DNA from: an uncultured Alphaproteobacteria bacterium
GTDB taxonomy: Bacteria > Pseudomonadota > Alphaproteobacteria > HIMB59 > GCA-002718135
DNA: 64,000 bases
Reading direction: 5' to 3'
Assembly (NCBI GenBank): GCA_902577905.1
Contig: CACHAQ010000002.1
Location: 19,728-83,727, forward strand
Part shown: positions 30,965 through 50,829 of the stretch, one piece after another
Position numbering within the stretch: the stretch's first letter is position 1
How the letters are laid out: the number at the start of each line of letters is the position of its first letter
Program-made: the position numbers and the translations under genes
The notes under the pieces: generated by a model
What the model was told of the DNA's origin: nothing
Seen by the model: only the letters and a program-made list of their open reading frames with translations
Databases searched by the model: none

Positions 30965-33890
30965 TCATATGTGGTGAAACAACTTTTAAATCCATTTGTT
31001 TATTTCTCACAGGATCTGCCCCAACTAAATTGGTATCTTTCCATTTATCTAAACCACCCTTGACAAAACCTAATCCAATCCAATGTCCAAGTTCAGGAGA
31101 ATAAGTAACTGAAGTAATTCTTCCAATACCCTGTCCTTTAATATTATTTTTTTCACAGACAATAGTTCCAGCATTAAAAGTTTCCTTTAAGTTTGTAGGA
31201 AAGAAACCAACTAGAATTTCTCGATCATTATTTTTTAATACTCCTCGTTTTCTCATTGCACTTCCAATATATGATTTTTTTGTAGAAGCCATTTTGGTTA
31301 AACCTGCATCATCAATTGTTACCCTTCCATCAAGCTCAGCGGCTGTTACATGACCTTTTTCAACTCTAAGTGCGCCTAAAGCTTCTAATCCATATAAACA
31401 TCCATCATATTTTTTTGCATTTGCCCAAAGTAGGTCCATCATTGTATTAGCAAAATCTGATTTGACATAAACTTCAAAAGCTAATTCACCTGAAAAACTA
31501 ATTCTTGCAATTCTACAAGGAATATTACCTTTAAGAAATGTTGAAGTAACACCCATAAAAGGTAAGTTATTATTAGTTATAACTAAAGAATCATCGACAC
31601 AATTATTGAGAACTTCTCTAGATTTAGGTCCTGCAACTGAAACGCCTGCCCATTGTTCAGAAACACTAGTCACATTAACATTAAGATCTGTCCATCTAGT
31701 TTGAAGTAATTCTTCTAACCATGACATCACTTTTGCAGCTTCACCTGTAGACGTCGTCATAAAATATTCATTTTCTGCTAATCTCCAAGATGTGCCATCA
31801 TCCATTACAATACCGTCATCACGCAACATAATACCGTATCTAGCTTTTCCAACTTGTAGTTTTGAAAAACCATTCGAATAAATTCTATTTAAAAATTCGG
31901 TAGAGTCTGGTCCTTGAATAGCAATTTTGCCTAATGATGTTACATCACAAATTCCAACTGTTTTTCTTACTGTTGATGCTTCTCTTATATAAGAGTCACT
32001 TAAAGTTTCATTTTCTTTGGGATAATACCAAGGTCTTTGATACAATCCAACTTCAATCATTTTTGCACCATGATCAATATTCCATTGATGCATTGGCGTT
32101 ACTCTTAACGGCCTAAAATGTTTTCCAACATTTCTTCCGCTTAAGGCGCCTATAGATATAGGAGTATAAGGAGGTCTAAAAACAGTAGTTCCAACTTCTG
32201 GAATTTCTTTATTTAAAAGTTCAGCCATTAAAGATAATCCAATGATATTTCCCATTTTTCCTTGATCGTTTGCCATACCTAAAGTTGTGTATCTTTTAAG
32301 ATGCTCTACCGAAATGAAACCTTCTCGATGTGCGAGTCTTACGTCATCTGTTGTTACATCATGTTGATAATCTACAAAACTTTTTGATCTAGATTTTTTA
32401 TATTTTACTTCATAAAGTGGTTGTATGGGATTTTTCCATCCACCAGGTTTTGGGAAAAAATAATTTGTTTTAGAAATACCTAAACGGTTCAATGCATCAG
32501 TAGTTCCTGCTATTCCAGAAGCAATACAATCATTTTTATTCCATAAACCTCTAGAAGAACCTACCATTGTAATATTTTCATTTGTGTCACTTGGTAAAAA
32601 ACAAGCATTGTTATAATCCCATTTAGGCTTTACGCCTCTGTGAGATAACAAATGTACAGCAGGTGACCAGCCACCTGATAATAGAACCTGATCACAATTT
32701 ATAGTTTCAGATTTATTAATAGTTTCACTTTTTGATATATCTAAACTATCAATTTTTTTTGAACCATTAATATTATAAGGCACATACCCTTTTCTAATTT
32801 CAAAACTTTTATTTGTCTCAATTTCAAAATTAGTTCGTGAATCAAGAACAGTTACATTGGCCCCAGCTTCTGATAATTGATGCGCTGTTTCATAAACAGA
32901 GTCATTATTTGTAGCTATCACAATTCTTTTTCCGGTGAGTACACCATATCTATTCAAATAATGCTTTGATGCATTTACGGTCATTACACCAGGAATATCA
33001 TTATTATTAAATGCAATGTGTCTTTCAATTGCTCCAGCACCAACAATTATATGCTTTGCTCTAATGGTCCAAAATCTTTGGCGTGGAATGTTTACATTTG
33101 GTGCTGATATATGGTCTGTTACTCTCTCTAATAAACCAACAACGCAATTATCATATAATCCGAATGCAGTAGTTCTAGTCATTATTTTTATGCCTAGATT
33201 TTCAAGTTGATTTTTAATTTGTGAGTTATCAAAATCATTTTCTGCAAGTTGATTTCCTCCAATAAGACTATCTTGCTCAACTAAAATAACATCTAATTTT
33301 TTTTCTGCTGCCTCTACTGCAGCTGCAACACCAGCAGGTCCTGATCCTACAACAATTAAATCACAAAAATCATGAGCATGCTCATAAGTATCTGGATCAG
33401 GTAACCCAGAAGCACTTCCCATTCCCGCAGCTTTTCTTATAAACTTTTCAAAAAACATCCATATGGCTGTTCCTTTACCCCATTCAAGTGGAGGTATTCC
33501 CATAAAAGTTTTATAATAAAAACCAGCTGCAAAAAACCTGCCTAAGTAATTATTTATTCCAGCTAGATCGAAATTTACATTTGGAAATGCATTTTGACCA
33601 CTTGCTTCCAAACCATTATATAATTCTTGTGTTGTTGCTCTTACATTTGGATCTCTTCTATCTTTTGAACCAATAGTAACTAAAGCACCGGATTCCTCGA
33701 CTCCACTAGAAAATATTCCCCTTGGTCTATGATATTTAAAACTTCTACCAACTATACCAATATTATTTGCAAGTAATGCTGATGCTAGAGTATCTCCTTC
33801 AAAACCTTTGTAATTTTTTTTATCCCACCTAAAGGATAAAATTTTATCTCTATTAATTTTTCCATAGTTATCTATTCTTCTTGTCTTCAT
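30933..33890 (-). CDS. soxA: Sarcosine oxidase alpha subunit
   Basis: 985 aa with an N-terminal 2Fe-2S-like/FAD-NAD region (VVGSGPAGVAAA) and a C-terminal GcvT-like folate-binding domain. It is flanked by delta and gamma subunit genes. Confidence 0.9.
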   Translation of the reverse strand: MKTRRIDNYGKINRDKILSFRWDKKNYKGFEGDTLASALLANNIGIVGRSFKYHRPRGIFSSGVEESGALVTIGSKDRRDPNVRATTQELYNGLEASGQNAFPNVNFDLAGINNYLGRFFAAGFYYKTFMGIPPLEWGKGTAIWMFFEKFIRKAAGMGSASGLPDPDTYEHAHDFCDLIVVGSGPAGVAAAVEAAEKKLDVILVEQDSLIGGNQLAENDFDNSQIKNQLENLGIKIMTRTTAFGLYDNCVVGLLERVTDHISAPNVNIPRQRFWTIRAKHIIVGAGAIERHIAFNNNDIPGVMTVNASKHYLNRYGVLTGKRIVIATNNDSVYETAHQLSEAGANVTVLDSRTNFEIETNKSFEIRKGYVPYNINGSKKIDSLDISKSETINKSETINCDQVLLSGGWSPAVHLLSHRGVKPKWDYNNACFLPSDTNENITMVGSSRGLWNKNDCIASGIAGTTDALNRLGISKTNYFFPKPGGWKNPIQPLYEVKYKKSRSKSFVDYQHDVTTDDVRLAHREGFISVEHLKRYTTLGMANDQGKMGNIIGLSLMAELLNKEIPEVGTTVFRPPYTPISIGALSGRNVGKHFRPLRVTPMHQWNIDHGAKMIEVGLYQRPWYYPKENETLSDSYIREASTVRKTVGICDVTSLGKIAIQGPDSTEFLNRIYSNGFSKLQVGKARYGIMLRDDGIVMDDGTSWRLAENEYFMTTSTGEAAKVMSWLEELLQTRWTDLNVNVTSVSEQWAGVSVAGPKSREVLNNCVDDSLVITNNNLPFMGVTSTFLKGNIPCRIARISFSGELAFEVYVKSDFANTMMDLLWANAKKYDGCLYGLEALGALRVEKGHVTAAELDGRVTIDDAGLTKMASTKKSYIGSAMRKRGVLKNNDREILVGFFPTNLKETFNAGTIVCEKNNIKGQGIGRITSVTYSPELGHWIGLGFVKGGLDKWKDTNLVGADPVRNKQMDLKVVSPHMIDPKGERMYA

Positions 33891-34171
33891 TTATTATTTT
33901 CTACAACCCTCTGTAAATCCGGATGGCATGGTTTGACACTTTTTATTTCATGAGTGACAGTAGAACGTTCAACTACCAACCACATTCTACATCCATTAGA
34001 ATGATGCCATGTTTCAAATTGAAAACCTTTTATATTTTTTCTGAAAAATATAGCTTCAGTCCATTCTTTCTCTGATGCATCTAACGAAGGATAATTGATT
34101 GTTGCATCTCCTCCATAACTAAATTCACTATGATCTCTTTCACCACAATAAGGACAATTGATTCTAATCAT
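33887..34171 (-). CDS. soxD: Sarcosine oxidase delta subunit
   Basis: 94 aa starting MIRINCPYCGERDHSEFSYGGDA, the typical SoxD Zn-ribbon start. It overlaps soxA by 4 nt. Confidence 0.9.
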   Translation of the reverse strand: MIRINCPYCGERDHSEFSYGGDATINYPSLDASEKEWTEAIFFRKNIKGFQFETWHHSNGCRMWLVVERSTVTHEIKSVKPCHPDLQRVVENNK

Positions 34172-35437
34172 TTAACCGTGCAATTTTGGATCAGGTCCTG
34201 CGCCACGTTCATCAATATTAATACCTTTTTCAAATCTTTCTAAATTATGATTTTGCACGTAGTTATGCGGGCTTTCATTTGCAATTAAGTCGGCAAAATA
34301 CCAACCTGATGCAGGACTAGCTTTGAAACCACCATAGTTCCAACCAGCATTTAAATAGAGATTAGATATTGGCGTTTTACAAATAAAAAATGATCCGTCC
34401 ATTGTCATGTCCATAACACCTGCCCAATGACGAAGTAATCTTATTCTTCCAAGTGAAGGAAATATTGCCATGGCCGCTTCGGCAACATCTTGAACCATAG
34501 GAAGGTTTCCTCTTTGAGCATATGATTTATACCAGTCAAGATCACCACCAAAAACCATGCTTCCTTTATCTGACTGCGATATATAGAAATGCGCACCACC
34601 TACACCATAAACAACAACTTGGTCTAGAAGTGGTTTAACAGCCTCAGATACAAATGCTTGTAGTTTATGGGATTCAATTGGCAGGTTGCCTAATTCTGCC
34701 ATTTGCCATAATACTGAAGTATTGCCTGCAACAGCAAATCCTATTTTCTTTCCTTTTATAATTCCTCTTGAAGTTTCAATACTTTCAATATTTCCATTCT
34801 TTCTTGTAAAACCTGTAACTTCACAATTTTGAAGAATGTCTACACCTAATGTATCTGCAGCCCTTGCATAACCCCATGCGACTGCATCGTGTCTTGCATT
34901 GCCTGCTCTTTTTTGAACTGCAGCTCCAAGTATTGGAAATCTTGAATTATGATAATTTAAATGCGGAATATTTTTCTTTAAAGTTTTTAAATCCCAAAGT
35001 TCTGCATCAGTTCCGTGGAGTCGCATAATATTATAAATCCGTGAAACTGAATCTTTAGCACCAGGACTATGAAATAACGAAACATGAGCTCGTTGGCTAA
35101 ACATTACATTATAATTTAATTCGTGACTTAAATTTTCCCATAACTTTAAAGAATGTTCATAAAATTCGTGGTTGCCTGGCATCATATAATTTGATCTTAC
35201 AATAGTTGTATTACGTCCAGCGTTTCCTCCACCAATCCAGCCTTTTTCTAAGACAGCTACATTTTTTATATTATGATTCTTTGCTAAATAATATGCCGTG
35301 GCAAGACCGTGTAAACCACCCCCAATTATTACAACATCATAACTACTTTTTGGTTCTGGATCACGCCATTGTCTAGTCCAATAAGACTGACCATTTAAAC
35401 CGTTTTTAATTACATTCCAGGCATTAAATTTTGTCAT
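34172..35437 (-). CDS. soxB: Sarcosine oxidase beta subunit
   Basis: 421 aa with FAD fold VVIIGGGLHGLATAYYLA. It directly abuts soxD. Confidence 0.9.
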   Translation of the reverse strand: MTKFNAWNVIKNGLNGQSYWTRQWRDPEPKSSYDVVIIGGGLHGLATAYYLAKNHNIKNVAVLEKGWIGGGNAGRNTTIVRSNYMMPGNHEFYEHSLKLWENLSHELNYNVMFSQRAHVSLFHSPGAKDSVSRIYNIMRLHGTDAELWDLKTLKKNIPHLNYHNSRFPILGAAVQKRAGNARHDAVAWGYARAADTLGVDILQNCEVTGFTRKNGNIESIETSRGIIKGKKIGFAVAGNTSVLWQMAELGNLPIESHKLQAFVSEAVKPLLDQVVVYGVGGAHFYISQSDKGSMVFGGDLDWYKSYAQRGNLPMVQDVAEAAMAIFPSLGRIRLLRHWAGVMDMTMDGSFFICKTPISNLYLNAGWNYGGFKASPASGWYFADLIANESPHNYVQNHNLERFEKGINIDERGAGPDPKLHG

Positions 35438-35513: not shown

Positions 35514-36539
35514 TTAACTTGATGAATCTGGCCATGTGTCATTTAATCTATAACCTTCTGGAAAAGGATCATCCTTATCGATATATAAACTTTGTTTTCC
35601 AGTAATAAATGCACTACCTGTTATTTTTGGAATAATACAATTTTTGTTATTAATTTTAATTTCCTTTTCAATACTTGCTTTAAATGAAGATCCTATAATA
35701 GACTTTGATATAAATTCTTCATTTATTTGTATTTCATCTTTTTCTTTCATTACTGCTAATCTTGCTGAAGTGCCTGTACCACAGGGTGAACGATCAAGTT
35801 TCCCAGGTCGTATAACAACTGTATTTAAACCTGTAAGTAATGATTGATTATTTTTTTTTAAGGGTTCAATAAATTGACAAAAGGAAAGATAGTCTAATCC
35901 TTTAATAGTAGGATGTTCAAATCCTATAGATGCGTTTGCTTCTTTCAATAATTCTTTAGCAACATTTACAAATTTGTTTGCATTCTTTGGTTCAATTTTA
36001 AGATTAAAATCACTAGCATTACAAATTAAAAAACTGTCACCTCCAAAAGCAGTACTTACTTTAATTGTACCATAATTTTTAGTCTTTAAATCTACATCTA
36101 TTTTATCTGCAAAGCAGGCAAGATTAGTTAAAGTGACACTTTTAACTTTCTTATTTTCACAATCAGCAACAACTTTTATTAAACCACCGGGAGCTTCGAG
36201 TGTAAGCATGGTTTTAGGATATTTCATTTGAACAATATTTTTTTCTAATAAGACTGTCGTTACACAAATTGCATTTGATCCACTCATTGGAGGATTATCT
36301 TCTGGTTCCATGATTACAAATCCAGCATCTGCATTTTTATTTGAAGGTTCTAAAATAATATTAAAATGTTTAAAGACCCCTCCCCGAGGTTCATTTAAAA
36401 AAAAATTTCTCCATTTTTTATCTAAAAAAAGTTTTTTAGAAGCTTCCTCAGGTGAATTAAACTTCAAGCCTTTAATTCCAGTTACGACATCCCCAATTTC
36501 ACCACAGCAATGTGTGTTAAATAATGTGATTTCATCCAT
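35514..36539 (-). CDS. Proline racemase/4-hydroxyproline epimerase superfamily protein with a Ser/Cys catalytic pair
   Basis: 341 aa with EPRGG and DRSPCGTGTSA motifs. The first catalytic-Cys position (MCGH block) reads MSGSN, with Ser86 encoded by AGT at 36282-36284. Confidence 0.8.
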   Translation of the reverse strand: MDEITLFNTHCCGEIGDVVTGIKGLKFNSPEEASKKLFLDKKWRNFFLNEPRGGVFKHFNIILEPSNKNADAGFVIMEPEDNPPMSGSNAICVTTVLLEKNIVQMKYPKTMLTLEAPGGLIKVVADCENKKVKSVTLTNLACFADKIDVDLKTKNYGTIKVSTAFGGDSFLICNASDFNLKIEPKNANKFVNVAKELLKEANASIGFEHPTIKGLDYLSFCQFIEPLKKNNQSLLTGLNTVVIRPGKLDRSPCGTGTSARLAVMKEKDEIQINEEFISKSIIGSSFKASIEKEIKINNKNCIIPKITGSAFITGKQSLYIDKDDPFPEGYRLNDTWPDSSS

Positions 36540-37689
36540 GTGGAATTATTAGGTCATCAATATTTTTAGAATGATGTGTAATTTGTTCGTATCCATCTTT
36601 TGTTATAATAAAACTATCACCAACTTGTGATCTAAAATTATTTGCACTTGCCCCGCCATCAACGGCAAATACCATTCCAGGCTCCAGTACTGTTTTATTA
36701 CCAACTACTAATTGTGGTTCCTCTAAAAAGCTAAAGCCTGTACCTCTTCCACATCGAAATGTAGGATAAGGGTATCCCTCAGACTGTATAGTATCTGCAT
36801 AAGCAGCATGAACTTCTTCAGCTGTTACTCCAGGGCCAAGAATTTCAAGAGCAGCTTTTTGAGATTTAACCGCAGTCTCAAAAGCTTTTATTTGTTCATC
36901 GGATTGAATTTCTTCAACCCAAAATATTCTGTCAAAACCTAATTTAAACCTATGGAAATTTGTAGAACCACAATAACATACGAATACGGGATCACCTTTT
37001 TTTATAATTTTGGTTGAAGCGCGATGGTGAGTTTTAGGTAAATCATGACCCGATGTCATAACAGGTAAAAAGTGAATATTTGGAGACATATTGATATTAT
37101 CAGGATAAAATTCTTTTAATAGATCTGCAGCTTTTCTTGTTCCAGCTTGTGATTGTGCAAGTGCAACCTCATACTCAGGAACATTATGGCCAATTGTTTT
37201 TTTTGCCGCCTCCATCATAGCCATACCAACTTCGCCAGCATGACGAGCTATATTCAATTCATGATTAGATTTAATCATTCTTATATTATCTATTAATTTG
37301 GTTAAATCCCCAGGATGGTCTTGAAGTAATTCGTCTAAATAACTCTTAACCATTGGGTTAATTTTAAATTTTTCAATAAAAATATTTTTATGTTGATTGG
37401 TGATTTGAGGTAATAATTCTCTCCATTCATTTCCAATACCATCATTCCATGTTTCAACCATATCTACAGGACAAGATTCTGGTACTAATAAAACATCAAG
37501 AAGAGGTGTAATTAAATAAGTTTTATGATCATTTGAAACAACTAATAATGTTGGACGATAAAAATCCATATGAAGGAAGTCATGATATCCTGTGAAATAA
37601 TATATCGAGTCATCATCAGTTATAATTGAGAGATCAATATTGTTCTCAGACATTTTTTTCTTTAGTTTATTTAAGTTTTCAGAAAACAT
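36532..37689 (-). CDS. M24-fold hydrolase with creatinase/prolidase N-terminal domain (creatinase- or ectoine-hydrolase-like)
   Basis: 385 aa with creatinase_N plus pita-bread fold. By eye, several canonical M24 metal ligands are substituted (VCYCG, CGRGTG, AVDGG). Confidence 0.7.
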   Translation of the reverse strand: MFSENLNKLKKKMSENNIDLSIITDDDSIYYFTGYHDFLHMDFYRPTLLVVSNDHKTYLITPLLDVLLVPESCPVDMVETWNDGIGNEWRELLPQITNQHKNIFIEKFKINPMVKSYLDELLQDHPGDLTKLIDNIRMIKSNHELNIARHAGEVGMAMMEAAKKTIGHNVPEYEVALAQSQAGTRKAADLLKEFYPDNINMSPNIHFLPVMTSGHDLPKTHHRASTKIIKKGDPVFVCYCGSTNFHRFKLGFDRIFWVEEIQSDEQIKAFETAVKSQKAALEILGPGVTAEEVHAAYADTIQSEGYPYPTFRCGRGTGFSFLEEPQLVVGNKTVLEPGMVFAVDGGASANNFRSQVGDSFIITKDGYEQITHHSKNIDDLIIPHG

Positions 37690-38844
37690 TTATTTTAATT
37701 GTTGTTCTACCAATTCAGTCCAATATGAAGAACCTATGACTAATAATTCGTCATTAAAATCATAATTATCAGCATGTAAAGGTCTGGAATGCTGCTCTGA
37801 TGTTCCGTTACCCATTAAAACAAAGCAGCCAGGTTTTTCATTTGCCATAACAGAAAAATCTTCTGAGAATAAACGTGGTTCTATATTACCATTACATTTA
37901 TCACTACCAAGTAAAGAAACTGCAGCTTTTGTTGCAGACTCAGTTTGATTTTTTGAATTAAAAGTTACAGGACAGGCTGTTTCATATTTAACACTACCAT
38001 TAACACCATGTGCATTGCAAATCCCTTCGACAATTTGTAACATTTTTGAAGCAATTTTTTCATTTGTTTCTTTCGATAAAGCTCTCGCGTCACCAGTCAT
38101 TTTTACCATACCTGGCAGAACATTTTTTTTACCATCGGTTATAAATTCGGTAATAGACACTATACCATTGTCTGCTGGATTTAATTTCCTAGACACTATC
38201 GATTGAAGTGCAACAGCTATTTGAGAACCAACAGTTATTGCATCTACCCCCATATGAGGTAACGCAGCATGCCCACCTTTAGTTTTTATTTCAATTTCAA
38301 ATAAATTTTCGCTGGCTGTAATAGCTCCATTTCTTGTACCAAATGTTCCAATTTCCATGTTAGGAATATTGTGCATAGCGTAAACTTCATCAATGTTAAA
38401 TTTATCAAACAATCCTTCATCTATCATTGTTCTTGCACCGAATGTATTCTCTTCATCAGGTTGAAAAATAAAATATACCGTACCGTTAAAGTTACCTTTT
38501 TCTGATAAATATTTTGCTGCACCTAATAACATTGTTGTGTGACCGTCATGTCCACATGCATGCATTCTGTTATCAAACTTGGACTTATAACTAAACTTAT
38601 TAGTTTCATGTATAGGAAGAGCATCCATGTCAGCTCTTATACCAATTGATTTTGAACTATTTCCTTTTTTTAAAATTCCAACTACTCCAGTTCTGGCAAT
38701 ACCAGAATGAACTTCTATTCCAAACTCTTTTAGAAGTGTTGATACTTTTTCTGCAGCATACTCTTCTTCAAAACTTAATTGTGGGTGCATATGAAGATCA
38801 TGACGCCATTCTACTAATTGGTTATGTAATGACTGAGTTTTCAT
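37690..38844 (-). CDS. M20-family N-acyl-L-amino-acid amidohydrolase (HipO/Ama-like)
   Basis: 384 aa with MHACGHDGH and FQPDEE motifs of the M20D subfamily. Confidence 0.8.
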   Translation of the reverse strand: MKTQSLHNQLVEWRHDLHMHPQLSFEEEYAAEKVSTLLKEFGIEVHSGIARTGVVGILKKGNSSKSIGIRADMDALPIHETNKFSYKSKFDNRMHACGHDGHTTMLLGAAKYLSEKGNFNGTVYFIFQPDEENTFGARTMIDEGLFDKFNIDEVYAMHNIPNMEIGTFGTRNGAITASENLFEIEIKTKGGHAALPHMGVDAITVGSQIAVALQSIVSRKLNPADNGIVSITEFITDGKKNVLPGMVKMTGDARALSKETNEKIASKMLQIVEGICNAHGVNGSVKYETACPVTFNSKNQTESATKAAVSLLGSDKCNGNIEPRLFSEDFSVMANEKPGCFVLMGNGTSEQHSRPLHADNYDFNDELLVIGSSYWTELVEQQLK

Positions 38845-38847
38845 AAC

Positions 38848-40290
38848 CTACATATTATTAAATTCTTTAATCTTATTGTCTAGAGAAAGCATATATTCAT
38901 AATGTGAATTCCAAAATTTTTGATCTTTTCTTTTTTCAAATTCTTCAAGACTTACACCTTGTTGCTCTACCCAAGTAAAGTACCCTAAATTAAATATTCT
39001 TTTCTTATCCATGTAAGAAAGTTCTAGCATATTATCAGTAGATATTCCTGATAAGTGTTTTCCAAATAGTTCAGCACAAACTATTTCATCATAATTATTT
39101 TTAAAATCAGCAATGGTCTTGTTCAACTCTGACATGTATAAATCTGCACCATCTGTAGCGACCGTTATAATTGCGTCATCACTAGTTAAATCCATATATT
39201 TAGCTAGTTTTATTGATGCCAATATATTTGCTATTGCTGAAAAGCCAAATTCAGGAAGTCGTGAAACAAAATCAGGTTCAAAATTTTTTTTCTCAATTAA
39301 AAACTTTTTTCCTATTTCAGTATTAAAAATCATATTTAGATTATTGGTAGCTTCATCAGAAACATCTACGACAAAATCGGTATTCATTACATTATGAATA
39401 AGTGGAACATGTTTGTCACCAATTCCTTGTATATTATGTTCACCATAACCTCCATGAAGCAAAGTTGGGCACTCCAAAGCTTCAACAACTGCAATCTTCG
39501 TCTGTAATTTATCTTTAAGATAATCTCCTGCTGCTAGAGTACCACTTGATCCTGAAGCACTTACGTAAAACCTAGGAGTTAAATTACTGTTACCTTTAAC
39601 TTTAAGAAATGATTTTTCAAAAGATGGACCCGTTATAGAACGATGAATACTGTAATTATAATACTCATCAAATTGATTTATGATATCATTTTGATTATCT
39701 TTTTTTAATTCATTACAAGCATCGTAAATTTCTTTAACATTACTTTCTGTGCCTTTTGTCTTTATGATATTTTTTTTATCTTTAACCCAATCATTCAACC
39801 ATTCAAATCTCTCATTACTCATTCCTTCAGGAAGTATTGCAATACTATTAAGGCCCATTATCCGAGATATTGCTACTCCGCCCCTACAATAATTTCCTGT
39901 AGAAGGCCAAACTGCTTTATGTTTTTCATAATCAAAAGTGCCATTTAATATTCTTGGAAGCAAACAACCATAAGCTGCTAAAACTTTATGAGCTGTTATT
40001 AAGGGAAAATATCGTCCCATATTTACAATTATCTTTGCCTTAACACCTGTGAATTCTGTTGGTAGCACAATATATTCAGGTTCATTTCCAAAACCTGATT
40101 GATCTCTTTTATTAAACCAATGAACTCTAAAGAGGTTAAGAGGATTGATATCATTATTATTTATTTTTTTTAGAGAATTTTTAATATCATCATTAATAAT
40201 TTGAGGGTCTTGAAGTTCACTTATACTTGGTAAAACAACTCCTTTTGATTTGAAGTAATCAGACGTTTTTTTTATTATTGCTTGACTCAT
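38848..40290 (-). CDS. Fold-type-II (Trp-synthase-beta-like) PLP-dependent enzyme with a ~90-aa N-terminal extension
   Basis: 480 aa with a candidate PLP-Lys segment ITAHKVLAAY and a STGNYCRGGV block. It is much longer than cysteine synthase or threonine dehydratase paralogues. Confidence 0.6.
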   Translation of the reverse strand: MSQAIIKKTSDYFKSKGVVLPSISELQDPQIINDDIKNSLKKINNNDINPLNLFRVHWFNKRDQSGFGNEPEYIVLPTEFTGVKAKIIVNMGRYFPLITAHKVLAAYGCLLPRILNGTFDYEKHKAVWPSTGNYCRGGVAISRIMGLNSIAILPEGMSNERFEWLNDWVKDKKNIIKTKGTESNVKEIYDACNELKKDNQNDIINQFDEYYNYSIHRSITGPSFEKSFLKVKGNSNLTPRFYVSASGSSGTLAAGDYLKDKLQTKIAVVEALECPTLLHGGYGEHNIQGIGDKHVPLIHNVMNTDFVVDVSDEATNNLNMIFNTEIGKKFLIEKKNFEPDFVSRLPEFGFSAIANILASIKLAKYMDLTSDDAIITVATDGADLYMSELNKTIADFKNNYDEIVCAELFGKHLSGISTDNMLELSYMDKKRIFNLGYFTWVEQQGVSLEEFEKRKDQKFWNSHYEYMLSLDNKIKEFNNM

Positions 40291-40293
40291 AAA

Positions 40294-41268
40294 TTAAATA
40301 TTGATGCCTAAATTATTTGTTTTACAAAGATTATAAGCAAATCTTGCTATTGCAGTATCTTGTACGCCAGTTCCTGTCAAATCACATATTGTTATATCTT
40401 CTTTATTTTTTCTTCCTAAGCTTGGATCGTTAATAATATCGCCAAGTTCATTAAATTTTTCTTTAGAAGAAATTATATTTTGTTTTAAAGCATGATGTAA
40501 TTCACCCAAAACACTTGTTTGTAATTGAATGTCAGGTACATATTGATCGCAATGTTTTAACATCTTAGGATCTAATTCGTTTTTTTGTTCTGCATCTGAC
40601 CCCATTGCTGTTATGTGAGTTCCTTTAATTATCCAATCAAATTCCAAAAGCGGTTTTTTACTAGGAGTCGTTGTAACGATTATTTCTGATAAGCTTGCCA
40701 ACTCCTTGCAAGAAGAAGCTACATGCAAATCTAAATCTAAATCTTTAAAACCTTCGATAAATTGGTTTGCTTTTGTCTCATTTCTTGTCCAGACTATTAT
40801 TTTTTTTATTTTTCTAACTAACATTATTGCTTGAAGTTGTAATTTGGCTTGAATTCCAGCTCCAATAATACCAACAGAATTAGCATTTTGATTTGATAAA
40901 TATTTTGTAGCTATTGCACCTGCTATAGCTGTTCTAGTATCTGTAAGATAACCTTCATCCAACAGAACAGATTTTACAACACCAGTCTTTGAATCTAATA
41001 AAACCATCAGTCCATTACTAGATGGCAGACCAAGTTTTGGATTATCGAAAAAACCTGAAGCGATTTTTATTGCAAAACTATCAAGACCCTCAACGTATGC
41101 AGCTTTAACATCAGATTCACCATGATATTTTTCAATATCAATTCTCATTATAGGTGGCATCATTACCAATCCTTTTGATAAACTTGTAAAAGCCTCCTCT
41201 ATTATTGGTATGAGATTTTTATTCAAATCTACATGTTGAATAATATCATTTTTATTAAGGATGAGCAT
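40294..41268 (-). CDS. Ornithine cyclodeaminase/mu-crystallin family protein (EutC-like)
   Basis: 324 aa with NAD fold GIIGAGIQA. It overlaps the upstream gene by 14 nt. Confidence 0.8.
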   Translation of the reverse strand: MLILNKNDIIQHVDLNKNLIPIIEEAFTSLSKGLVMMPPIMRIDIEKYHGESDVKAAYVEGLDSFAIKIASGFFDNPKLGLPSSNGLMVLLDSKTGVVKSVLLDEGYLTDTRTAIAGAIATKYLSNQNANSVGIIGAGIQAKLQLQAIMLVRKIKKIIVWTRNETKANQFIEGFKDLDLDLHVASSCKELASLSEIIVTTTPSKKPLLEFDWIIKGTHITAMGSDAEQKNELDPKMLKHCDQYVPDIQLQTSVLGELHHALKQNIISSKEKFNELGDIINDPSLGRKNKEDITICDLTGTGVQDTAIARFAYNLCKTNNLGINI

Positions 41269-42217
41269 GGCTTAAAACTTTGTTAAACAATTCCGAGTCA
41301 ATATTTCCACCACAAATTAAACAGATTATATTTTTTCCTAAGTGCGATGTTAGTTTTTCTTTAACAACCATTACACTTGTTGCTGCAGCACCTTCAGATA
41401 CAATTTTGTGTTCTAAAAAATTTATTCTAATTCCTTCAGCTATTTTTTCTTCACTTACTAAAACAAAGTCATCAACGTATTGTTGTACAATATTAAATGT
41501 AAATTTATTATCTAAGCCAATACTACCACCTAGACAATCAGCTAAAGTTTCAGTTTCCTCTACATCAACAGGTCTGCCTTTTTTTAGACTTTCAAACATT
41601 GAAGGACCTCTTTCCATAGATACAGCAATAATTTTTGTGTCAGGTTTTTGAAGTTTAATAGCTTGTGCTATTCCAGATATAAGACCGCCACCAGATGTTG
41701 GTATAATTACAGTATCAACTTCAGGAAATTCAGTAAGCATTTCAAGCCCAACTGTACCTTGGCCTATAATAATGTCTTCATCATCAAAGGGGTGAATTAA
41801 TGGGATATTTTTTTCTTTCGCAATTTGTTTAGCATGTAAATCAGCTTCATCACTATTCTTTCCAATAATTTCTACTTTTGCTCCTAATTTTTCAATAGCC
41901 TCTTTTCTATATTCTGGAACCATTGAAGACATGTATATTGTTGATTGAATGCCCAATACCTTTGATGCATAAGCAACGCCTTTGCCATGATTGCCTGTAG
42001 AAACTGCGATGACTCCTTTGTTCTTGTCATCTTCACTTAAAGAAAGTAGCTTATTAACAGCGCCTCTTAACTTAAATGAACCAGTGATTTGAAAATTTTC
42101 TAACTTTAGTTTTACTGTATTACTTTTTGATAAGAAATTAGAATTAATTAATGGTGTATAATTAACATAAGGTAAAATTTTCTTATGTGCTTCTTGTATT
42201 TGTTGAAGTGTAATCAA
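41255..42217 (-). CDS. Threonine/serine dehydratase-like PLP enzyme (EutB-like)
   Basis: 320 aa with PLP-Lys motif GSFKLRGA and STGNHGKG. Confidence 0.8.
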   Translation of the reverse strand: MITLQQIQEAHKKILPYVNYTPLINSNFLSKSNTVKLKLENFQITGSFKLRGAVNKLLSLSEDDKNKGVIAVSTGNHGKGVAYASKVLGIQSTIYMSSMVPEYRKEAIEKLGAKVEIIGKNSDEADLHAKQIAKEKNIPLIHPFDDEDIIIGQGTVGLEMLTEFPEVDTVIIPTSGGGLISGIAQAIKLQKPDTKIIAVSMERGPSMFESLKKGRPVDVEETETLADCLGGSIGLDNKFTFNIVQQYVDDFVLVSEEKIAEGIRINFLEHKIVSEGAAATSVMVVKEKLTSHLGKNIICLICGGNIDSELFNKVLSHAHP

Positions 42218-42229
42218 TTTAATCCCTAT

Positions 42230-42985
42230 TTAATGTAATTTAAATAGGTTACCATAACCATCAATTTTTTGATTAATATTAGATAATCTTAATGAATCCC
42301 AAATAATAGCTTGATTACTTGAAATGATATCTATGCTTAATTTTGACTCTAATTCTTCGATAATATCAATTACTTTTAATGCAGTACAAGAAACAAAAAT
42401 ACTATCAACATCTGTTAAATCAATTGAGGAAATTGTTCGCATTAAACTATCATGAGTAACTTTGGCAATTTCGGAGTCATAATTTAAATTAAACGAACTA
42501 AATGATTTAATTTCAAATCCACTATCAATTAAATATTCATAAACTTTAACATTAACGTCTTTTGGATAAGGGGTAAGAACAGCAATTTTTTTATGATTTA
42601 ATAATTTAAGTGCTTTTACCGCTGCTGTAATAGGTGTCGTAATTAAAGCATCAGGTTTAGCTTTAAAAATTTCAGATCTTATTTTTTTTTCACCAATTTC
42701 AATAGTACCCGAAGTACATCCATACGCTACAACTTGTATTTTTTCATTAGGTAATATTTGGTTTGCTGTTTCTGAAAGATTATCAGCCATCCTCATATAA
42801 TTTTCATGAGTTAGAGGATTTAAAAAAGGTATCCTATTAAAAAATAGATCAACTGGTAAATTATGACAAATTTTTCTAAAATCCTGCTCTATTGTAAAAT
42901 CAGTTGATAATGTGATTATACCAATTCTAGAAAAGTTTGTATTATGTAAATTGGCTTTAACATTATTTTGATTAAAACTATCCAT
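42230..42985 (-). CDS. Asp/Glu/hydantoin racemase superfamily protein (maleate-isomerase/EutA-like)
   Basis: 251 aa with two conserved Cys blocks, YGCTSGT and FVSCTAL. Confidence 0.75.
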   Translation of the reverse strand: MDSFNQNNVKANLHNTNFSRIGIITLSTDFTIEQDFRKICHNLPVDLFFNRIPFLNPLTHENYMRMADNLSETANQILPNEKIQVVAYGCTSGTIEIGEKKIRSEIFKAKPDALITTPITAAVKALKLLNHKKIAVLTPYPKDVNVKVYEYLIDSGFEIKSFSSFNLNYDSEIAKVTHDSLMRTISSIDLTDVDSIFVSCTALKVIDIIEELESKLSIDIISSNQAIIWDSLRLSNINQKIDGYGNLFKLH

Positions 42986-44088
42986 TACTGATTTGGAAAA
43001 TAATCCTCACACTCACCTTCTCTATGAACATCAGTAGTGGCACAATGTAAACTACCACCAAACGCATAAACGTCTCTAAAAGGAACTGGAATAACTTCCA
43101 ATCCAAAACTTTCCATTTGTTTAATCATTTTTTCTTCCGTTGCCTCGACGCATATAGTTTTAGGATCAATTATCAAAACGTTCATAGATAACCAGATTGA
43201 TGAATAACACATAGGTGGTGGACTATTATGAATGGAGGGTGCTGCCTCATGAATTTCCCATTTATTATCATCAAAAATTTTTCTTTGCTCTGATGATATT
43301 TTTCTATTCGGATTAATGATTATTACTCCTGGTTTAATAGGAGTAAAACATGCATCAATGTGAGTTGGAATTAAATCACCTGGTAAATTGATTTGATGAA
43401 CGCGATGATTTGGATAATGTCTTCTTAACCAATCTAAACCGCTTAAATTTGATGTGAAATTATTATGATAAAAAAGATCTTTTCCAAAGCGTAAAATTTC
43501 TGCTGCATCAAAAAGTGGTTCTTTTTCTGTCAATATCATGTCTCTATTTTCGATTTTTTTGTATCGTTCTTCTTCCGTTAAGCCTTCAGGAAGATAATTG
43601 GACTTATAAGATTGATTTGTTAATCTTGGTTTAGGTGCCGACTCCCATCTCATATTTTTATCTTCTGAATAATATTTTTCAAGTAGTGGTCTATAAGCAA
43701 GGTACTCAAACCATCTACATCTGTAAGACATGGGCGCCTCTAGCATTTCATTTCCTACAGTAAGAATAACATCTCTGGGAGGCATACAACCAAACATACC
43801 ATCATTAGACCAATCGGGTGTCTCAATACTCTGAGAAAAGTCAATAGGTGTTGGTCTATCAACTTTTATATTTAAGGAATTTAAAATTTTAACAAAGTTT
43901 TCTAATTGTATGTTTGCTTTATCAATTGACTCTTTTGAACGTGGTCCGTGAGATCCTGCCATACCACTATCTTTACTAATTTTTGGTTCAAGTGCTGGTT
44001 CCATAGGAGGTATGTTGGCATTTTCAACTGCTCCAACTATAACATGCTTTAATGGATCCCATTCATTCCAAGAATTAACTATTGTCAT
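42985..44088 (-). CDS. Amidinotransferase (AGAT/StrB1-like, guanidino-group-modifying enzyme superfamily)
   Basis: 367 aa. The N-terminus NSWNEWDPLKHVIVG matches the AGAT SYNEWDPLEEVIVG block. The C-terminal catalytic Cys block is GGSLHCATTDVHR (AGAT: GGGFHCWTCDVRR). Confidence 0.75.
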   Translation of the reverse strand: MTIVNSWNEWDPLKHVIVGAVENANIPPMEPALEPKISKDSGMAGSHGPRSKESIDKANIQLENFVKILNSLNIKVDRPTPIDFSQSIETPDWSNDGMFGCMPPRDVILTVGNEMLEAPMSYRCRWFEYLAYRPLLEKYYSEDKNMRWESAPKPRLTNQSYKSNYLPEGLTEEERYKKIENRDMILTEKEPLFDAAEILRFGKDLFYHNNFTSNLSGLDWLRRHYPNHRVHQINLPGDLIPTHIDACFTPIKPGVIIINPNRKISSEQRKIFDDNKWEIHEAAPSIHNSPPPMCYSSIWLSMNVLIIDPKTICVEATEEKMIKQMESFGLEVIPVPFRDVYAFGGSLHCATTDVHREGECEDYFPNQ

Positions 44089-44131
44089 TATATTTTCCTT
44101 AATTTAAAACTATGCATTATAATTAAAACTT

Positions 44132-45583
44132 ATGGAATTAAATAACAAATCACTCTTTAAACAAAAATGTTTTATAAATGGGGAATGGGTTGGCAGTTCT
44201 TCAGGTGAAACTCTTGAGGTAAATAATCCAGCATCTCTTGAAATTATTGGCAACGTCCCAAAATGCTCAGTTTCAGAAACCAAAAAAGCTGTAGATGATG
44301 CAAATACTGCTTTCCAAAGTTGGAAAGAAACTACTGCTAAAGAAAGATCAATTATTCTTAAAAAATGGGGTGAACTCATCACAGAAAATGCAGATGATTT
44401 AGCTAAAATAATGACTATTGAGCAAGGTAAACCTCTGGCTGAAGCAAAGGGCGAAATTCTAATGGGTGCTTCATATATTGAGTTCTATGCTGAAGAAGCA
44501 AAAAGAGTGTATGGTGATATAGTTCCTGATCCAAGACCTGGAAAAAGAATTGTAATAATTAAACAACCTGTTGGTGTTGTTGGAGCAATAACTCCATGGA
44601 ATTTTCCAAATTCAATGATAACAAGAAAATGTGCAGCCGCTTTAGCAGTTGGTTGTACTACTGTTGTTAAACCAGCAAGCCAAACACCCTATTCAGCATT
44701 AGCTGTAGCAGTGCTCGCTAAAGAAGCTGGTTTTCCAGATGGTGTATTTAATGTAATAACTGGATCGGCAAGTGAAATTGGTAAAGAACTAACAAGTAAC
44801 CCTATTGTTAGAAAAATTTCTTTTACTGGATCTACGGAGGTTGGAAAAATACTTTTAGAGCAAAGTGCCTCAACAGTAAAAAAAGTTTCTATGGAACTTG
44901 GTGGTCACGCACCATTTATAGTTTTTGATGATGCAGATATGGATGAAGCTGTTGCAGGCGCACTGCAAAGTAAATTTAGAAATAGTGGCCAAACATGTAT
45001 TTGTTCAAATAGAATATTTGTGCATGAAAATATTTATGATGAATTCCTGGAAAAATTTACAAATGAAGTCAATAAAATCACAGTAGGCAATGGACTTGAA
45101 GATGGAATTACATCTGGTCCTTTAATTGATCAATCCTCTCTAGAAAAAGTAATTGATCATGTACAAGACGCAGTTAATACAGGAGCTAAGATAGCGATTG
45201 GTGGAGATGTGCATTCGCTTGGTGGGAATTTCTATCAACCAACTGTTCTCTCTAATGTATCTACAAAAGCAAAAATAACTTTTGAAGAAACATTTGGACC
45301 TGTTGCTCCTCTGTATAAATTTTCCAGTGATGATGAAGTGATTAAAATGGCTAATGATACTCCTTATGGATTAGCTTCATATTTCTATTCAAGAGACATA
45401 GGAAGAATTTGGAGAGTTGCCGAAGCACTTGAATATGGAATTGTATCTATTAACAATGGACTACCTACAATTGCAGAAGTTCCTTTTGGAGGTGTAAAAG
45501 AATCAGGAATGGGGAGAGAAGGTTCTCGATATGGCCTTGATGACTATTTAACTATAAAATATATTTCAATGGGTGGCATTTAA
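44132..45583 (+). CDS. gabD: Succinate-semialdehyde dehydrogenase
   Basis: 483 aa, collinear with E. coli GabD as I recall it (INGEW, EQGKPLAEAKGE, ITPWNFP, LELGG, GQTCIC, EETFGP, LEYGIV). Confidence 0.88.
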   Translation: MELNNKSLFKQKCFINGEWVGSSSGETLEVNNPASLEIIGNVPKCSVSETKKAVDDANTAFQSWKETTAKERSIILKKWGELITENADDLAKIMTIEQGKPLAEAKGEILMGASYIEFYAEEAKRVYGDIVPDPRPGKRIVIIKQPVGVVGAITPWNFPNSMITRKCAAALAVGCTTVVKPASQTPYSALAVAVLAKEAGFPDGVFNVITGSASEIGKELTSNPIVRKISFTGSTEVGKILLEQSASTVKKVSMELGGHAPFIVFDDADMDEAVAGALQSKFRNSGQTCICSNRIFVHENIYDEFLEKFTNEVNKITVGNGLEDGITSGPLIDQSSLEKVIDHVQDAVNTGAKIAIGGDVHSLGGNFYQPTVLSNVSTKAKITFEETFGPVAPLYKFSSDDEVIKMANDTPYGLASYFYSRDIGRIWRVAEALEYGIVSINNGLPTIAEVPFGGVKESGMGREGSRYGLDDYLTIKYISMGGI

Positions 45584-50742: not shown

Positions 50743-50829
50743 TGGTGCGGCTGAGAAGACTTGAACTTCCACAGGATAAATCCCACAGCGACCTCAACGC
50801 TGCGCGTATACCAATTCCGCCACAGCCGC
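50743..50829 (-). tRNA. tRNA-Leu (anticodon GAG), class II with long variable arm and encoded CCA
   Basis: Hand-folded from the sequence GCGGCTGTGGCGGAATTGGTATACGCGCAGCGTTGAGGTCGCTGTGGGATTTATCCTGTGGAAGTTCAAGTCTTCTCAGCCGCACCA. The 7-bp acceptor stem is GCGGCTG/CAGCCGC. The anticodon stem is CAGCG/CGCTG with loop TTGAGGT. The variable arm is 15 nt. The T arm is GGAAG-TTCAAGT-CTTCT. Confidence 0.9.

Follow-up and report, generated by a model that had tools for sequence, protein, structure and literature searches.

The characterized members of the family of L-arginine:glycine amidinotransferase (AGAT) and StrB1 are all biosynthetic (PMC4887976, PMC12623156), in agreement with what a first-pass annotation of the locus described here had said of the known relatives. 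The reactions of AmtA and human AGAT (hAGAT) can run in both directions, and guanidinoacetate serves as a natural donor (PMC4887976). AmtA, in which the flap has the sequence D-M-H-P-M, rejects both glycine and guanidinoacetate (PMC4887976).

Here we describe a predicted amidinotransferase of this family from an uncultured alphaproteobacterium, a small marine organism of the SAR11 type, encoded within a stretch of 64,000 nucleotides of DNA that was analysed as a whole and that we term the window. Bacteria of the SAR11 type rank with the ocean's most abundant cells; they rely on external glycine-type compounds, and nitrogen is scarce for them. Literature searches that linked SAR11 or Pelagibacter to guanidinoacetate, guanidino-binding proteins, creatinase or amidinotransferase turned up no account of the enzyme.

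The gene and its junctions

The amidinotransferase gene is divergent from gabD, with the following coordinates.

42985 to 44088, minus strand: AGAT-family amidinotransferase (P0001), an open reading frame of 367 amino acids with an ATG start
44089 to 44131, no strand: divergent intergenic region of 43 nt between the start codons of the amidinotransferase and gabD
44132 to 45583, plus strand: divergent succinate-semialdehyde dehydrogenase GabD (TIGR01780 SSADH, 728.6 bits, above the cut-off of 646)

The sequence AGGA lies 9 nt upstream of the amidinotransferase ATG. At the other end of the gene the stop codon shares one base with the ATG of the EutA-like gene, giving TAATG on the minus strand (i.e. 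...atccattact... on the plus strand). The coordinates of the open reading frames thus confirm the earlier description of the gene as a first cistron with a 1-nt overlap and with gabD 43 nt away. The two sequence blocks that had been reported as intact, NEWDPL and GGSLHCATTD, are both present in the translation, the first within NSWNEWDPL at residues 5-13 and the second at residues 344-353.

Rfam, applied to the window together with four loci of relatives, matched nothing but a tRNA; glycine and guanidine riboswitches were absent, and the region 44089-44131 contained no Rfam element. A promoter scan of this AT-rich DNA gave fewer hits than shuffled sequence, and terminator hits were not above those in shuffles. 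Neither Pfam nor NCBIfam has a usable model match for the protein, and the NCBI annotation, "serine/threonine protein kinase", is a mislabel.

Family membership and active-site residues

In a phmmer search of the PDB the protein matched human AGAT (1JDW/1JDX) over residues 4-364 of 367, with E 3.4e-77 and 263 bits. Further matches were SxtG (E 5e-66), HsvA (E 5e-61, 210 bits) and StrB1 (E 2e-55). These E-values place the protein in the family far beyond chance. The catalytic triad is kept as Cys349, His243 and Asp194 (i.e. C407, H303 and D254 of hAGAT); in an alignment of 30 diverse family members the His and Cys are invariant and the Asp is at least 90% conserved. Asp106 and Asp245 (hAGAT D170 and D305), together with Arg262 (R322) and Ser296/Ser297 (S354/S355), are conserved in the window protein as well as across the whole marine clade defined below. 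We take D170 and D305 to be guanidino-binding, and R322, S354 and S355 to be carboxylate-binding, in hAGAT. With full-length matches in the PDB and every catalytic and substrate-anchoring residue kept, the family identity given in the first-pass annotation is upheld, and the alignment shows the Cys-His-Asp triad to be retained. The Pfam models for arginine deiminase (PF02274 ADI; E 0.11, 11.9 bits against a threshold of 22.8) and PAD_porph (PF04371; E 0.001, 18.8 bits against 25) both score below threshold, giving no support for a hydrolase of the ADI or DDAH type.

The gene therefore encodes a predicted active L-arginine:glycine-amidinotransferase-type enzyme of the guanidino-group-modifying enzyme superfamily (EC 2.1.4.x), which would be expected to adopt the pentein fold (i.e. 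a five-fold beta/alpha propeller). An AlphaFold2 model calculated from an 11-sequence alignment had a mean pLDDT of 52, too poor for inspection of the pocket.

The 300-flap of the window protein is D238-L-I-P-T242; in flap-less representatives such as P0161 the alignment shows a gap of four residues here. Across 77 sequences (the window protein and 76 from the loci) 114 of the 367 positions are invariant. The window genus has 38 lineage-specific replacements, three of them within the flap, and may differ from its relatives in specificity. A change of flap tied to the Eut-like gene context was considered and rejected; one operon type is found with D-M-Y-P-I, D-P-F-P-T and D-L-I-P-T flaps.

The window protein falls into a marine clade with 99% aLRT in a quick tree whose tips lack reference names, with bit scores against the PDB and flap motifs from the literature serving as proxies. 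The clade lies within the flap-bearing half of the family, separate from the CyrA-flap clade and from the flap-less StrB1-like half. Identity between the window protein and a representative of the CyrA-flap clade (P0150) is 37%. Assignment of P0128 as an animal AGAT was rejected; it has many mismatches to human AGAT, with 296 bits. An amidinotransferase is present in 39 of the 45 genomes of the window family, many Pelagibacteraceae keep a relative, and there are at least 563 relatives among GTDB species genomes; cultured strains that carry the gene include Ca. Pelagibacter sp. HIMB123 and HIMB1838. Judged from its sequences, this is a distinct and widespread marine bacterial clade of AGAT-type enzymes.

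The downstream array

The minus-strand gene content downstream of the amidinotransferase agrees with the Eut-like/Sox array noted previously. It comprises the following features.

42230 to 42985, minus strand: EutA-like protein of the Asp/Glu-racemase/arylmalonate-decarboxylase family (212 bits, below the EutA cut-off of 318)
41255 to 42217, minus strand: EutB-like PLP dehydratase (379 bits, below the cut-off of 413)
40294 to 41268, minus strand: EutC-like member of the ornithine-cyclodeaminase/mu-crystallin family (450 bits against PRK08291, which has a cut-off of 408)
38848 to 40290, minus strand: fold-type-II PLP protein of 480 amino acids (PALP), distantly CysK-like
37690 to 38844, minus strand: M20 amidohydrolase, DoeB2/CpsA-like, below both equivalog cut-offs
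36532 to 37689, minus strand: M24 protein with the creatinase/prolidase fold, neither a true creatinase nor a true ectoine hydrolase
35514 to 36539, minus strand: proline-racemase-family protein (ProRac), trans-3-hydroxy-L-proline dehydratase-like (417 bits against a cut-off of 550)
30377 to 35437, minus strand: sarcosine-oxidase-type block as a whole
34172 to 35437, minus strand: SoxB
33887 to 34171, minus strand: open reading frame of 94 amino acids in the SoxD position (PF04267 is found in that place at the orthologous locus L027)
30933 to 33890, minus strand: SoxA
30377 to 30964, minus strand: open reading frame of 195 amino acids that occupies the SoxG position and lacks a Pfam match

The order EutA-EutB-EutC is kept, with EutA and EutB below their cut-offs and EutC above that of PRK08291 only; against TIGR02992 it fails, with 409 bits against 472. 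The M24 protein matches 1CHM with E 1.9e-15 and DoeA structures with E 1.3e-8. By comparison, the genuine proteins give 2e-161 (creatinase against 1CHM) and 3e-109 (DoeA). The M24 protein has 56.7 bits against TIGR02993 (cut-off 613) and the M20 protein 316 bits against the DoeB2 model (cut-off 550), so that the two fall short of the EutD/DoeA and EutE/DoeB equivalogs.

Searching the window genome (87% complete) by tblastn with a Pelagibacter-type creatinase gave only a 28% match, i.e. no true creatinase. Canonical argG and argH are present, so the supply of arginine does not depend on the amidinotransferase; the enzyme as the only route to arginine was rejected on these grounds. The sole ureohydrolase of the genome is agmatinase-type and not an arginase, and an arginase-closed carrier cycle of ornithine and arginine was consequently rejected for this genome. 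The serC equivalog model, which bears on the question of serine/glycine auxotrophy, passes in only four of 14 control genomes.

Gene neighbourhoods in relatives

The divergent pairing with gabD is found at all 18 loci of close relatives and in five of six genus representatives, and is absent outside the family. The gene order amidinotransferase-EutA-EutB-EutC occurs at 16 of the 18 close loci, and the 1-nt overlap of the amidinotransferase with EutA is retained from genus to genus, at 63-86% identity. Contigs from the seawater RNA libraries of four studies cover the amidinotransferase and two bridge its junction with EutA; such contigs may include DNA and are no proof of one continuous transcript, their depth cannot rank genes, and the depth at gabD includes other organisms. 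In another lineage (L062) an Asp/Glu-racemase-family gene directly follows the amidinotransferase. The conserved order and overlap, the contigs spanning the junction and the L062 arrangement would all fit the scheme put forward in the first-pass annotation, where the amidinotransferase is step one of a Eut-like operon, its ornithine-type product passing to the EutC-like cyclodeaminase and glycine or sarcosine to the M24 protein and Sox.

However, the gene is separable from these supposed partners. In L012 and L013, and throughout the Pelagibacteraceae loci, the amidinotransferase persists in the absence of EutBC, PALP, M20, M24, ProRac and Sox. A true DoeA (E 3e-109) comes after it in L012, L013 and L056, and in sister genera both a true ectoine hydrolase and DmdA adjoin it. 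DmdA acts on a sulfur osmolyte, so the slot after the gene can be occupied by enzymes with unrelated substrates. Because this slot holds DmdA in the sister genera, the array is a patchwork of osmolyte genes rather than a single pathway. Moreover the M24 protein of the window is neither creatinase nor DoeA, and the type of flap does not track operon context. The proposed wiring is thus not supported, and an integrated pathway is unlikely. Instead, the amidinotransferase is a separable module heading a mosaic osmolyte-catabolism array, and not a proven step of a Eut-like pathway.

The surroundings of the gene in other genomes are varied. Among 59 loci of Pelagibacteraceae, those of Pelagibacter being close kin and not independent observations, an EamA transporter gene is directly upstream of the amidinotransferase in 42, a threonine-aldolase-family gene is downstream in 18 and a creatinase is present in nine. 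One Pelagibacter-type genome carries a true creatinase (E 2.4e-161 against 1CHM) whose gene shares 1 nt with the start of the amidinotransferase gene. At L061, L071, L103 and L021 the gene is flanked by a PotD-type ABC importer and a ureohydrolase of the agmatinase type, in some cases together with a DoeA-like M24. We note that contexts of this last type belong to other alphaproteobacteria. Sox genes and a GbdR/SouR-type regulator are near the amidinotransferase at L108. Elsewhere (L054, L060, L065, L067 and L084) the orthologue is alone among unrelated genes.

A proposed role in guanidino-acid salvage

The function that we favor, and to which we would give an even chance, is a reversible amidino transfer from imported donors of the guanidinoacetate/creatine type to ornithine, giving arginine and glycine-type products. 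The chemistry is established for the family and inferred for the window protein. It would follow a ping-pong course in which Cys349 attacks the guanidino carbon of the donor, aided by His243 and Asp194, with the guanidinium group held by Asp106 and Asp245. An S-amidino-enzyme would form and the de-amidinated product would be released, after which the acceptor amine would take the amidino group. Arg262 and Ser296/Ser297 would anchor the substrate carboxylate, and the substrates are therefore likely to be amino- or guanidino-acids. In CyrA, a strict Arg:Gly enzyme, the lid reads D-I-F-P-S, to which the D-L-I-P-T of the window protein is similar.

Gene context, which is heterogeneous and the sole evidence on direction, makes salvage the most likely direction. 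The donor would be an imported guanidino acid, guanidinoacetate first and possibly creatine, taurocyamine or 4-guanidinobutyrate. Transfer of the amidino group to ornithine would yield arginine and, with it, glycine or alternatively sarcosine, taurine or GABA, and a streamlined cell would in this way capture the nitrogen-rich amidino group as well as the glycine-type product. A catabolic or salvage role had been suggested in the first-pass annotation. The role itself is supported by orthologues that lie beside a true creatinase, a true ectoine hydrolase, or an ABC importer with an agmatinase-type ureohydrolase; its integration into one pathway is not.

A more far-reaching form of the proposal, which we regard as doubtful, is that the clade is a catabolic guanidino-acid:ornithine amidinotransferase with which SAR11-type plankton turn dissolved guanidinoacetate and/or creatine into arginine and glycine/sarcosine, the amidino nitrogen not being lost as urea. 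Running in reverse, this could be the 'unidentified enzyme' linking sarcosine and creatine in seawater (PMC9321204).

Alternative functions

If the enzyme were biosynthetic, arginine and glycine (or another amine) would be converted to guanidinoacetate or another guanidino compound, for use as an osmolyte, a phosphagen precursor or an exported metabolite. This is the direction of all the characterized family members, and the CyrA-like flap fits Arg:Gly chemistry. The carriers of the EamA/DMT type encoded directly upstream in so many of the Pelagibacteraceae loci are often exporters; export would fit a biosynthetic product and speaks against salvage. By contrast, no NRPS/PKS or other biosynthetic partner was found among the surveyed loci, and no methyltransferase adjoins the gene in the window or the SAR11-type loci, a divergent CMAS-family methyltransferase being present at L021 only. 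Recurring beside the gene are hydrolases and oxidases that break down guanidino or amidine osmolytes, and a compound with three nitrogen atoms would presumably be costly for streamlined plankton poor in nitrogen. Biosynthesis is therefore improbable in our view.

The activity might instead be specific to creatine and sarcosine (creatine + ornithine <-> sarcosine + arginine), with sarcosine passing to Sox, or the reverse reaction making creatine from sarcosine. The array ends in soxBDAG and Sox is also near the gene at L108, while the sequence in and around the flap departs from that of hAGAT. In a seawater tracer experiment creatine became labelled as if from sarcosine (PMC9321204). Such an activity would, however, be redundant where a true creatinase adjoins the gene. 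Furthermore, we know of no family member that takes N-methylated donors or acceptors, and we consider this specificity quite improbable.

Finally, a role as a superfamily hydrolase akin to arginine deiminase/DDAH, or as an HsvA-like polyamine amidinotransferase, is very improbable, since the sub-threshold PAD_porph and ADI matches reflect the shared superfamily, and the fairly close relationship to HsvA and the PotD-type importers beside some orthologues are set against a much stronger match to AGAT (263 against 210 bits), equivalents of Arg322 and Ser354/355 that are invariant in the clade and indicate acid substrates, and grouping with flap-bearing AGAT-like sequences.

Implications

Returning to salvage, the recurring neighbours of the gene (a transporter with creatinase, ectoine hydrolase or ureohydrolase), and its retention in most genomes of the window family, suggest an unrecognised use of guanidino compounds. 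Animals and phytoplankton release compounds of this class, among them guanidinoacetate, creatine and taurocyamine. If the direction is that of salvage, the enzyme would be a new sink in the marine cycle of dissolved organic nitrogen and would give a catabolic role to an enzyme family known only from biosynthesis. It would also correct a systematic misannotation (a supposed kinase for which the model libraries have no entry). A direct route from guanidinoacetate or creatine to arginine, if true, would be undescribed and nitrogen-conserving.

Comparison with known systems

In the pathway of creatinase and sarcosine oxidase, classical creatine degradation needs no amidinotransferase, and tblastn detects no true creatinase in the window genome. 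The resemblance is that Sox ends the window array and that some Pelagibacteraceae orthologues are translationally coupled to a genuine creatinase. The EutA-, EutB- and EutC-like genes followed by M20 and M24 recall the eutABCDE/doeAB clusters with which Sinorhizobium, Ruegeria and Halomonas use ectoine and hydroxyectoine (PMC13188858). Those clusters have no amidinotransferase, however, and the EutA, EutB, M24 and M20 proteins of the window are all under the equivalog cut-offs.

AmtA (homoarginine synthesis for phaseolotoxin) and StrB1 (streptomycin) share the superfamily and the covalent Cys mechanism with the window protein. StrB1-like sequences apparently lack the flap and lie in the other half of the family tree, and the PDB match to StrB1 has E 2e-55. 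CyrA/AoaA (cylindrospermopsin) and SxtG (saxitoxin; E 5e-66) come from cyanobacteria and are prokaryotic AGAT-type enzymes like the window protein. As in the window protein, position 300 of the CyrA flap is hydrophobic and position 302 is occupied by a small residue with a hydroxyl group (PMC4887976, PMC3684758). These enzymes belong to toxin biosynthetic clusters, whereas the window gene has no PKS or NRPS nearby and its clade is separate from that of P0150.

The best solved match is vertebrate AGAT/GATM (EC 2.1.4.1; 1JDW/1JDX), which has the triad, D170/D305, R322/S354/S355 and the 300-flap in common with the window protein. The flap sequences differ, being D-L-I-P-T in the window protein and D-P-N-P-M in AGAT (PMC4887976). 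There is no mitochondrial presequence and no creatine-synthesis partner was seen; unlike its vertebrate counterpart, the window gene is bacterial, operonic and set in a catabolic context.

Gene and array in the window

The first-pass annotation placed an AGAT/StrB1-type amidinotransferase gene at the head of an array of Eut-like and Sox genes, divergent from gabD 43 nt away. That description of the locus was borne out in all details.

Genes of the locus
44132..45583, divergent: gabD, succinate-semialdehyde dehydrogenase, 43 nt from the amidinotransferase gene
42985..44088, minus strand: amidinotransferase, 367 aa by ORF call and translation
42230..42985, minus strand: EutA-like gene, next after the amidinotransferase
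minus strand, array in 5′ to 3′ order: EutA-like, EutB-like, EutC-like, 480-aa PALP, M20 amidohydrolase, M24, proline-racemase-family, Sox block
36532-37689, minus strand: M24 protein of the creatinase/prolidase fold
minus strand, distal end of the array: Sox block, comprising SoxB, a 94-aa ORF (SoxD position), SoxA and a 195-aa ORF (SoxG position, 30377-30964)

An AGGA sequence lies 9 nt 5′ of the amidinotransferase ATG, and on the minus strand the TAA of this gene shares one base with the ATG of the EutA-like gene (TAATG). Translation of 42985..44088 gives both motif blocks intact, NSWNEWDPL in the N-terminal region and, close to the C-terminus, GGSLHCATTD. The divergent GabD scores 728.6 bits with TIGR01780 against a cut-off of 646. 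The M24 protein matches the structures of prolidases (E 1e-18), creatinase (E about 2e-15) and ectoine hydrolase (E 1e-8), is roughly equidistant from them, and by sequence falls outside each of these characterised subfamilies. The 195-aa ORF has no Pfam match.

Two further features were observed in the window. Positions 27952-30302 hold a 554-aa ORF with no Pfam match and a 238-aa ORF matching DUF3726 alone; this pair is conserved in sister genera, where it adjoins an M19 dipeptidase homologue. The sole Rfam match in the window is a tRNA (50746-50829) directly upstream of mgtE, within a long ORF called as mgtE.

Enzyme identity and active site

No Pfam or NCBIfam model recognised the amidinotransferase, and structural relatives were sought by phmmer against PDB sequences. 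Human AGAT (hAGAT) was matched over residues 4-364 with E 3.4e-77 (263 bits), followed by the saxitoxin enzyme SxtG (E 5e-66), HsvA (E 5e-61) and the streptomycin enzyme StrB1 (E 2e-55). In alignments with hAGAT and the family the catalytic triad is complete, comprising Asp194, His243 and Cys349 (human D254, H303 and C407). Asp106 and Asp245 (D170 and D305), guanidino-binding in hAGAT, are also kept, as are Arg262 and Ser296/Ser297 (R322 and S354/S355), which bind the carboxylate there. The assignment of the triad is confirmed in PMC3684758. A search with family models gave no sign of a hydrolase of the ADI/DDAH type. Neither of the two sequence-level objections raised in the first-pass annotation, a broken triad or a hydrolase identity, is borne out. 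The earlier view that the enzyme looks active is upheld by the full-length AGAT match and the retention of both triad and anchoring residues, and the protein is very probably an active AGAT-type transferase, judged on its sequence.

Neither Pfam-A nor NCBIfam has a model for the family, a probable reason for its having been overlooked. NCBI records label the family, with the homologues P0004, P0006, P0016, P0079 and P0109, "serine/threonine protein kinase"; the JGI label is "glycine amidinotransferase".

Place in the family and the substrate lid

Among 1.84 billion cluster representatives searched, 226 clusters matched at E <1e-30. A quick maximum-likelihood tree was made of 95 full-length sequences, with groups labelled from PDB scores and the published flap motifs of hAGAT, AmtA and CyrA. 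The tree has two halves, one StrB1-like and lacking the flap, the other AGAT-like and bearing it. The second half includes the window protein, in a clade with aLRT 99; nested in this clade are 23 rows that form a "marine" group (aLRT 91).

The 300-flap, the lid over the substrate, reads D-L-I-P-T in the window protein. Published flaps are D-P-N-P-M in hAGAT, D-M-H-P-M in AmtA (phaseolotoxin) and D-I-F-P-S in CyrA (cylindrospermopsin) (PMC4887976). By this comparison the window protein is like CyrA, a strict Arg:Gly enzyme, at both specificity positions; P0150, the representative carrying the CyrA flap, falls in another clade. Most members of the marine clade have D-P-Y-P-I, and D-L-I-P-T is found in two sister genera besides the genus of the window. 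A comparison with 59 other sequences of the marine clade shows 38 replacements peculiar to the window genus, all at sites where conservation in the remainder of the clade is at least 93%. Among them are P239L, Y240I and I242T in the flap, T247C beside the catalytic His-Ile-Asp motif, and the block 207-213. They do not follow operon context, and may mark a shift in specificity.

Distribution and expression

The window genome is a SAR11-like single-cell-type assembly of 1.45 Mb with ~30% G+C, from a family to which the MarineAlpha5 bins also belong. The amidinotransferase occurs in 39 of the 45 genomes in this family, in none of the 34 genomes searched of the sister family, and in 11 of 401 genomes sampled evenly over the class. 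GTDB species genomes contain at least 563 relatives; among the matches listed, many are from true Pelagibacteraceae (61-63% identity) and a few from Desulfobacterales, Thermoleophilia, Rhodospirillaceae, Filomicrobium and others.

Seawater metatranscriptome contigs from four studies cover the gene at 90-99% identity, and contigs of two studies bridge its junction with the EutA-like gene (X1, 42576-43017; X9, 42876-43089). These contigs lend weak support to expression of the gene and to its co-transcription with the EutA-like gene: RNA libraries may hold some DNA, and contigs cannot be equated with transcripts.

The window genome has argG, argH and the urease alpha subunit. Its single ureohydrolase is of the agmatinase type (TIGR01230, 187 bits against a cut-off of 174; the arginase model gives 88 against 228). 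Neither a true creatinase nor the ectoine hydrolase DoeA was found by tblastn in this assembly, which is 87% complete. No match above the cut-off of the SerC equivalog model, a poor test, was found in the genome.

Genomic neighbourhoods

Within the family of the window genome the syntenic order is LipB-MgtE-(GCS2-GshB)-BioY-ROK-GabD, divergent to amidinotransferase-EutA-EutB-EutC-PALP-M20-M24-ProRac-Sox. GabD is present in all 18 close loci and EutABC in 16 of them; in L016 GabD is not next to the amidinotransferase. In loci of two sister genera (L012/L057 and L013) the order is amidinotransferase-(EutA)-DoeA-DmdA (L012:6419-8788, L013:7131-9442), where DoeA is genuine (6TWJ, E 3e-109) and the DMSP demethylase DmdA scores 536 bits in NCBIfam against a cut-off of 410. 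EutBC, PALP, M20, M24, ProRac and Sox are all absent from the amidinotransferase site in these loci, and in L049 and L050 other genes substitute for everything past EutC. The amidinotransferase thus persists where the genes after it change, and the position that follows it is a swap-in site for catabolic genes of chemically unrelated osmolytes (ectoine-type, DMSP, sarcosine).

Other partners are found in true Pelagibacteraceae. An EamA/DMT transporter gene precedes the amidinotransferase in 42 of 59 loci. Nine loci have, between this pair, a true creatinase gene (1CHM, E 2.4e-161), which in L020 overlaps the amidinotransferase start by 1 nt. In 18 of the 59 the next gene after the amidinotransferase is a Beta_elim_lyase (threonine-aldolase family); its NCBIfam matches are weak, 76 bits to the GntG-type (guanitoxin) aldolase against a cut-off of 230, and 52 bits to LtaE. 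The variable cassette EamA-(creatinase)-amidinotransferase-(threonine-aldolase-family PLP enzyme) is seen at L020:6946-12663 and in ~50 Pelagibacteraceae loci (L063-L115), with mobA and moeA just upstream.

Elsewhere in the alphaproteobacteria PotD-type ABC importers adjoin the amidinotransferase in L061 and L071, the latter also having an agmatinase-family ureohydrolase. An agmatinase-family gene, a DoeA-like M24 and a PotD-type importer lie a few genes away in L021/L103. In L108, a Rhodobacteraceae single-cell genome, Sox genes and a GbdR/SouR-type AraC regulator are within 3 kb. Orthologues in L054, L060, L065, L067 and L084 stand alone among unrelated genes, and the neighbourhood of P0075 is unrelated, with TauD-family and Amdase-family genes close by. 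In L062 the longest ORF (7468-8913, minus strand) joins a MobA-like half (residues 8-194) to an agmatinase-family half (213-474), and adjoins the amidinotransferase as well as a gene of the Asp/Glu-racemase family; either the fusion is real or two genes were merged in ORF calling.

Taken together, these contexts repeatedly pair the amidinotransferase with transporters and with enzymes for the breakdown of guanidino or amidine osmolytes. No operonic methyltransferase, NRPS or PKS was found as a biosynthetic partner at the surveyed loci.

Proposed mechanism and role

As shown for the family, amidino transfer would be ping-pong through S-amidino-Cys349, with His243 and Asp194 as the acid/base pair. 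Asp106 and Asp245 would hold the guanidinium and Arg262 and Ser296/297 the substrate carboxylate, while the flap would shut over the larger substrate. Such transfer is freely reversible (PMC4887976), so that supply would set its direction.

The first-pass annotation had tentatively proposed that an ornithine-type product passes to the cyclodeaminase homologue (EutC-like), and a glycine/sarcosine branch to M24 and Sox. This wiring is unsupported, as the amidinotransferase is kept without EutBC, M24 and Sox in L012/L057 and L013, and it is improbable that the enzyme provides a chemical step of the Eut-like pathway. Given its catabolic and transport partners we read it instead as a salvage amidinotransferase, and put the chance of a salvage or catabolic role at about even. 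The donor would be an imported guanidino acid, most simply guanidinoacetate, with creatine, taurocyamine or 4-guanidinobutyrate as possibilities. With ornithine as acceptor, arginine would be formed together with glycine (or with sarcosine, taurine or GABA, depending on the donor). Products of the glycine type would agree with the terminal Sox block, and with the partners seen in Pelagibacteraceae, creatinase and aldolase. The divergent gabD would suit GABA, but this pairing is lineage-restricted.

To our knowledge all characterised members of the family are biosynthetic, acting in the formation of creatine, streptomycin, cylindrospermopsin, saxitoxin and phaseolotoxin. Amidinotransferases appear solely in that capacity in a 2025 review of guanidine metabolism (PMC12623156). 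A full-text literature search found no account of an AGAT from SAR11 or from marine bacteria generally, the lone mention being a KEGG-based remark on taurine-to-taurocyamine conversion. A seawater tracer study reported that creatine became labelled as if from sarcosine, via an "unidentified enzyme" (PMC9321204); an amidinotransferase taking sarcosine or creatine would explain this labelling, the most unconventional of the readings and one of low probability. The finding gains interest from the abundance of the organism. The window enzyme is ordinary-looking in an unusual physiological setting: it belongs to a new clade of a known kind of enzyme, which it would probably put to a new use in salvage.
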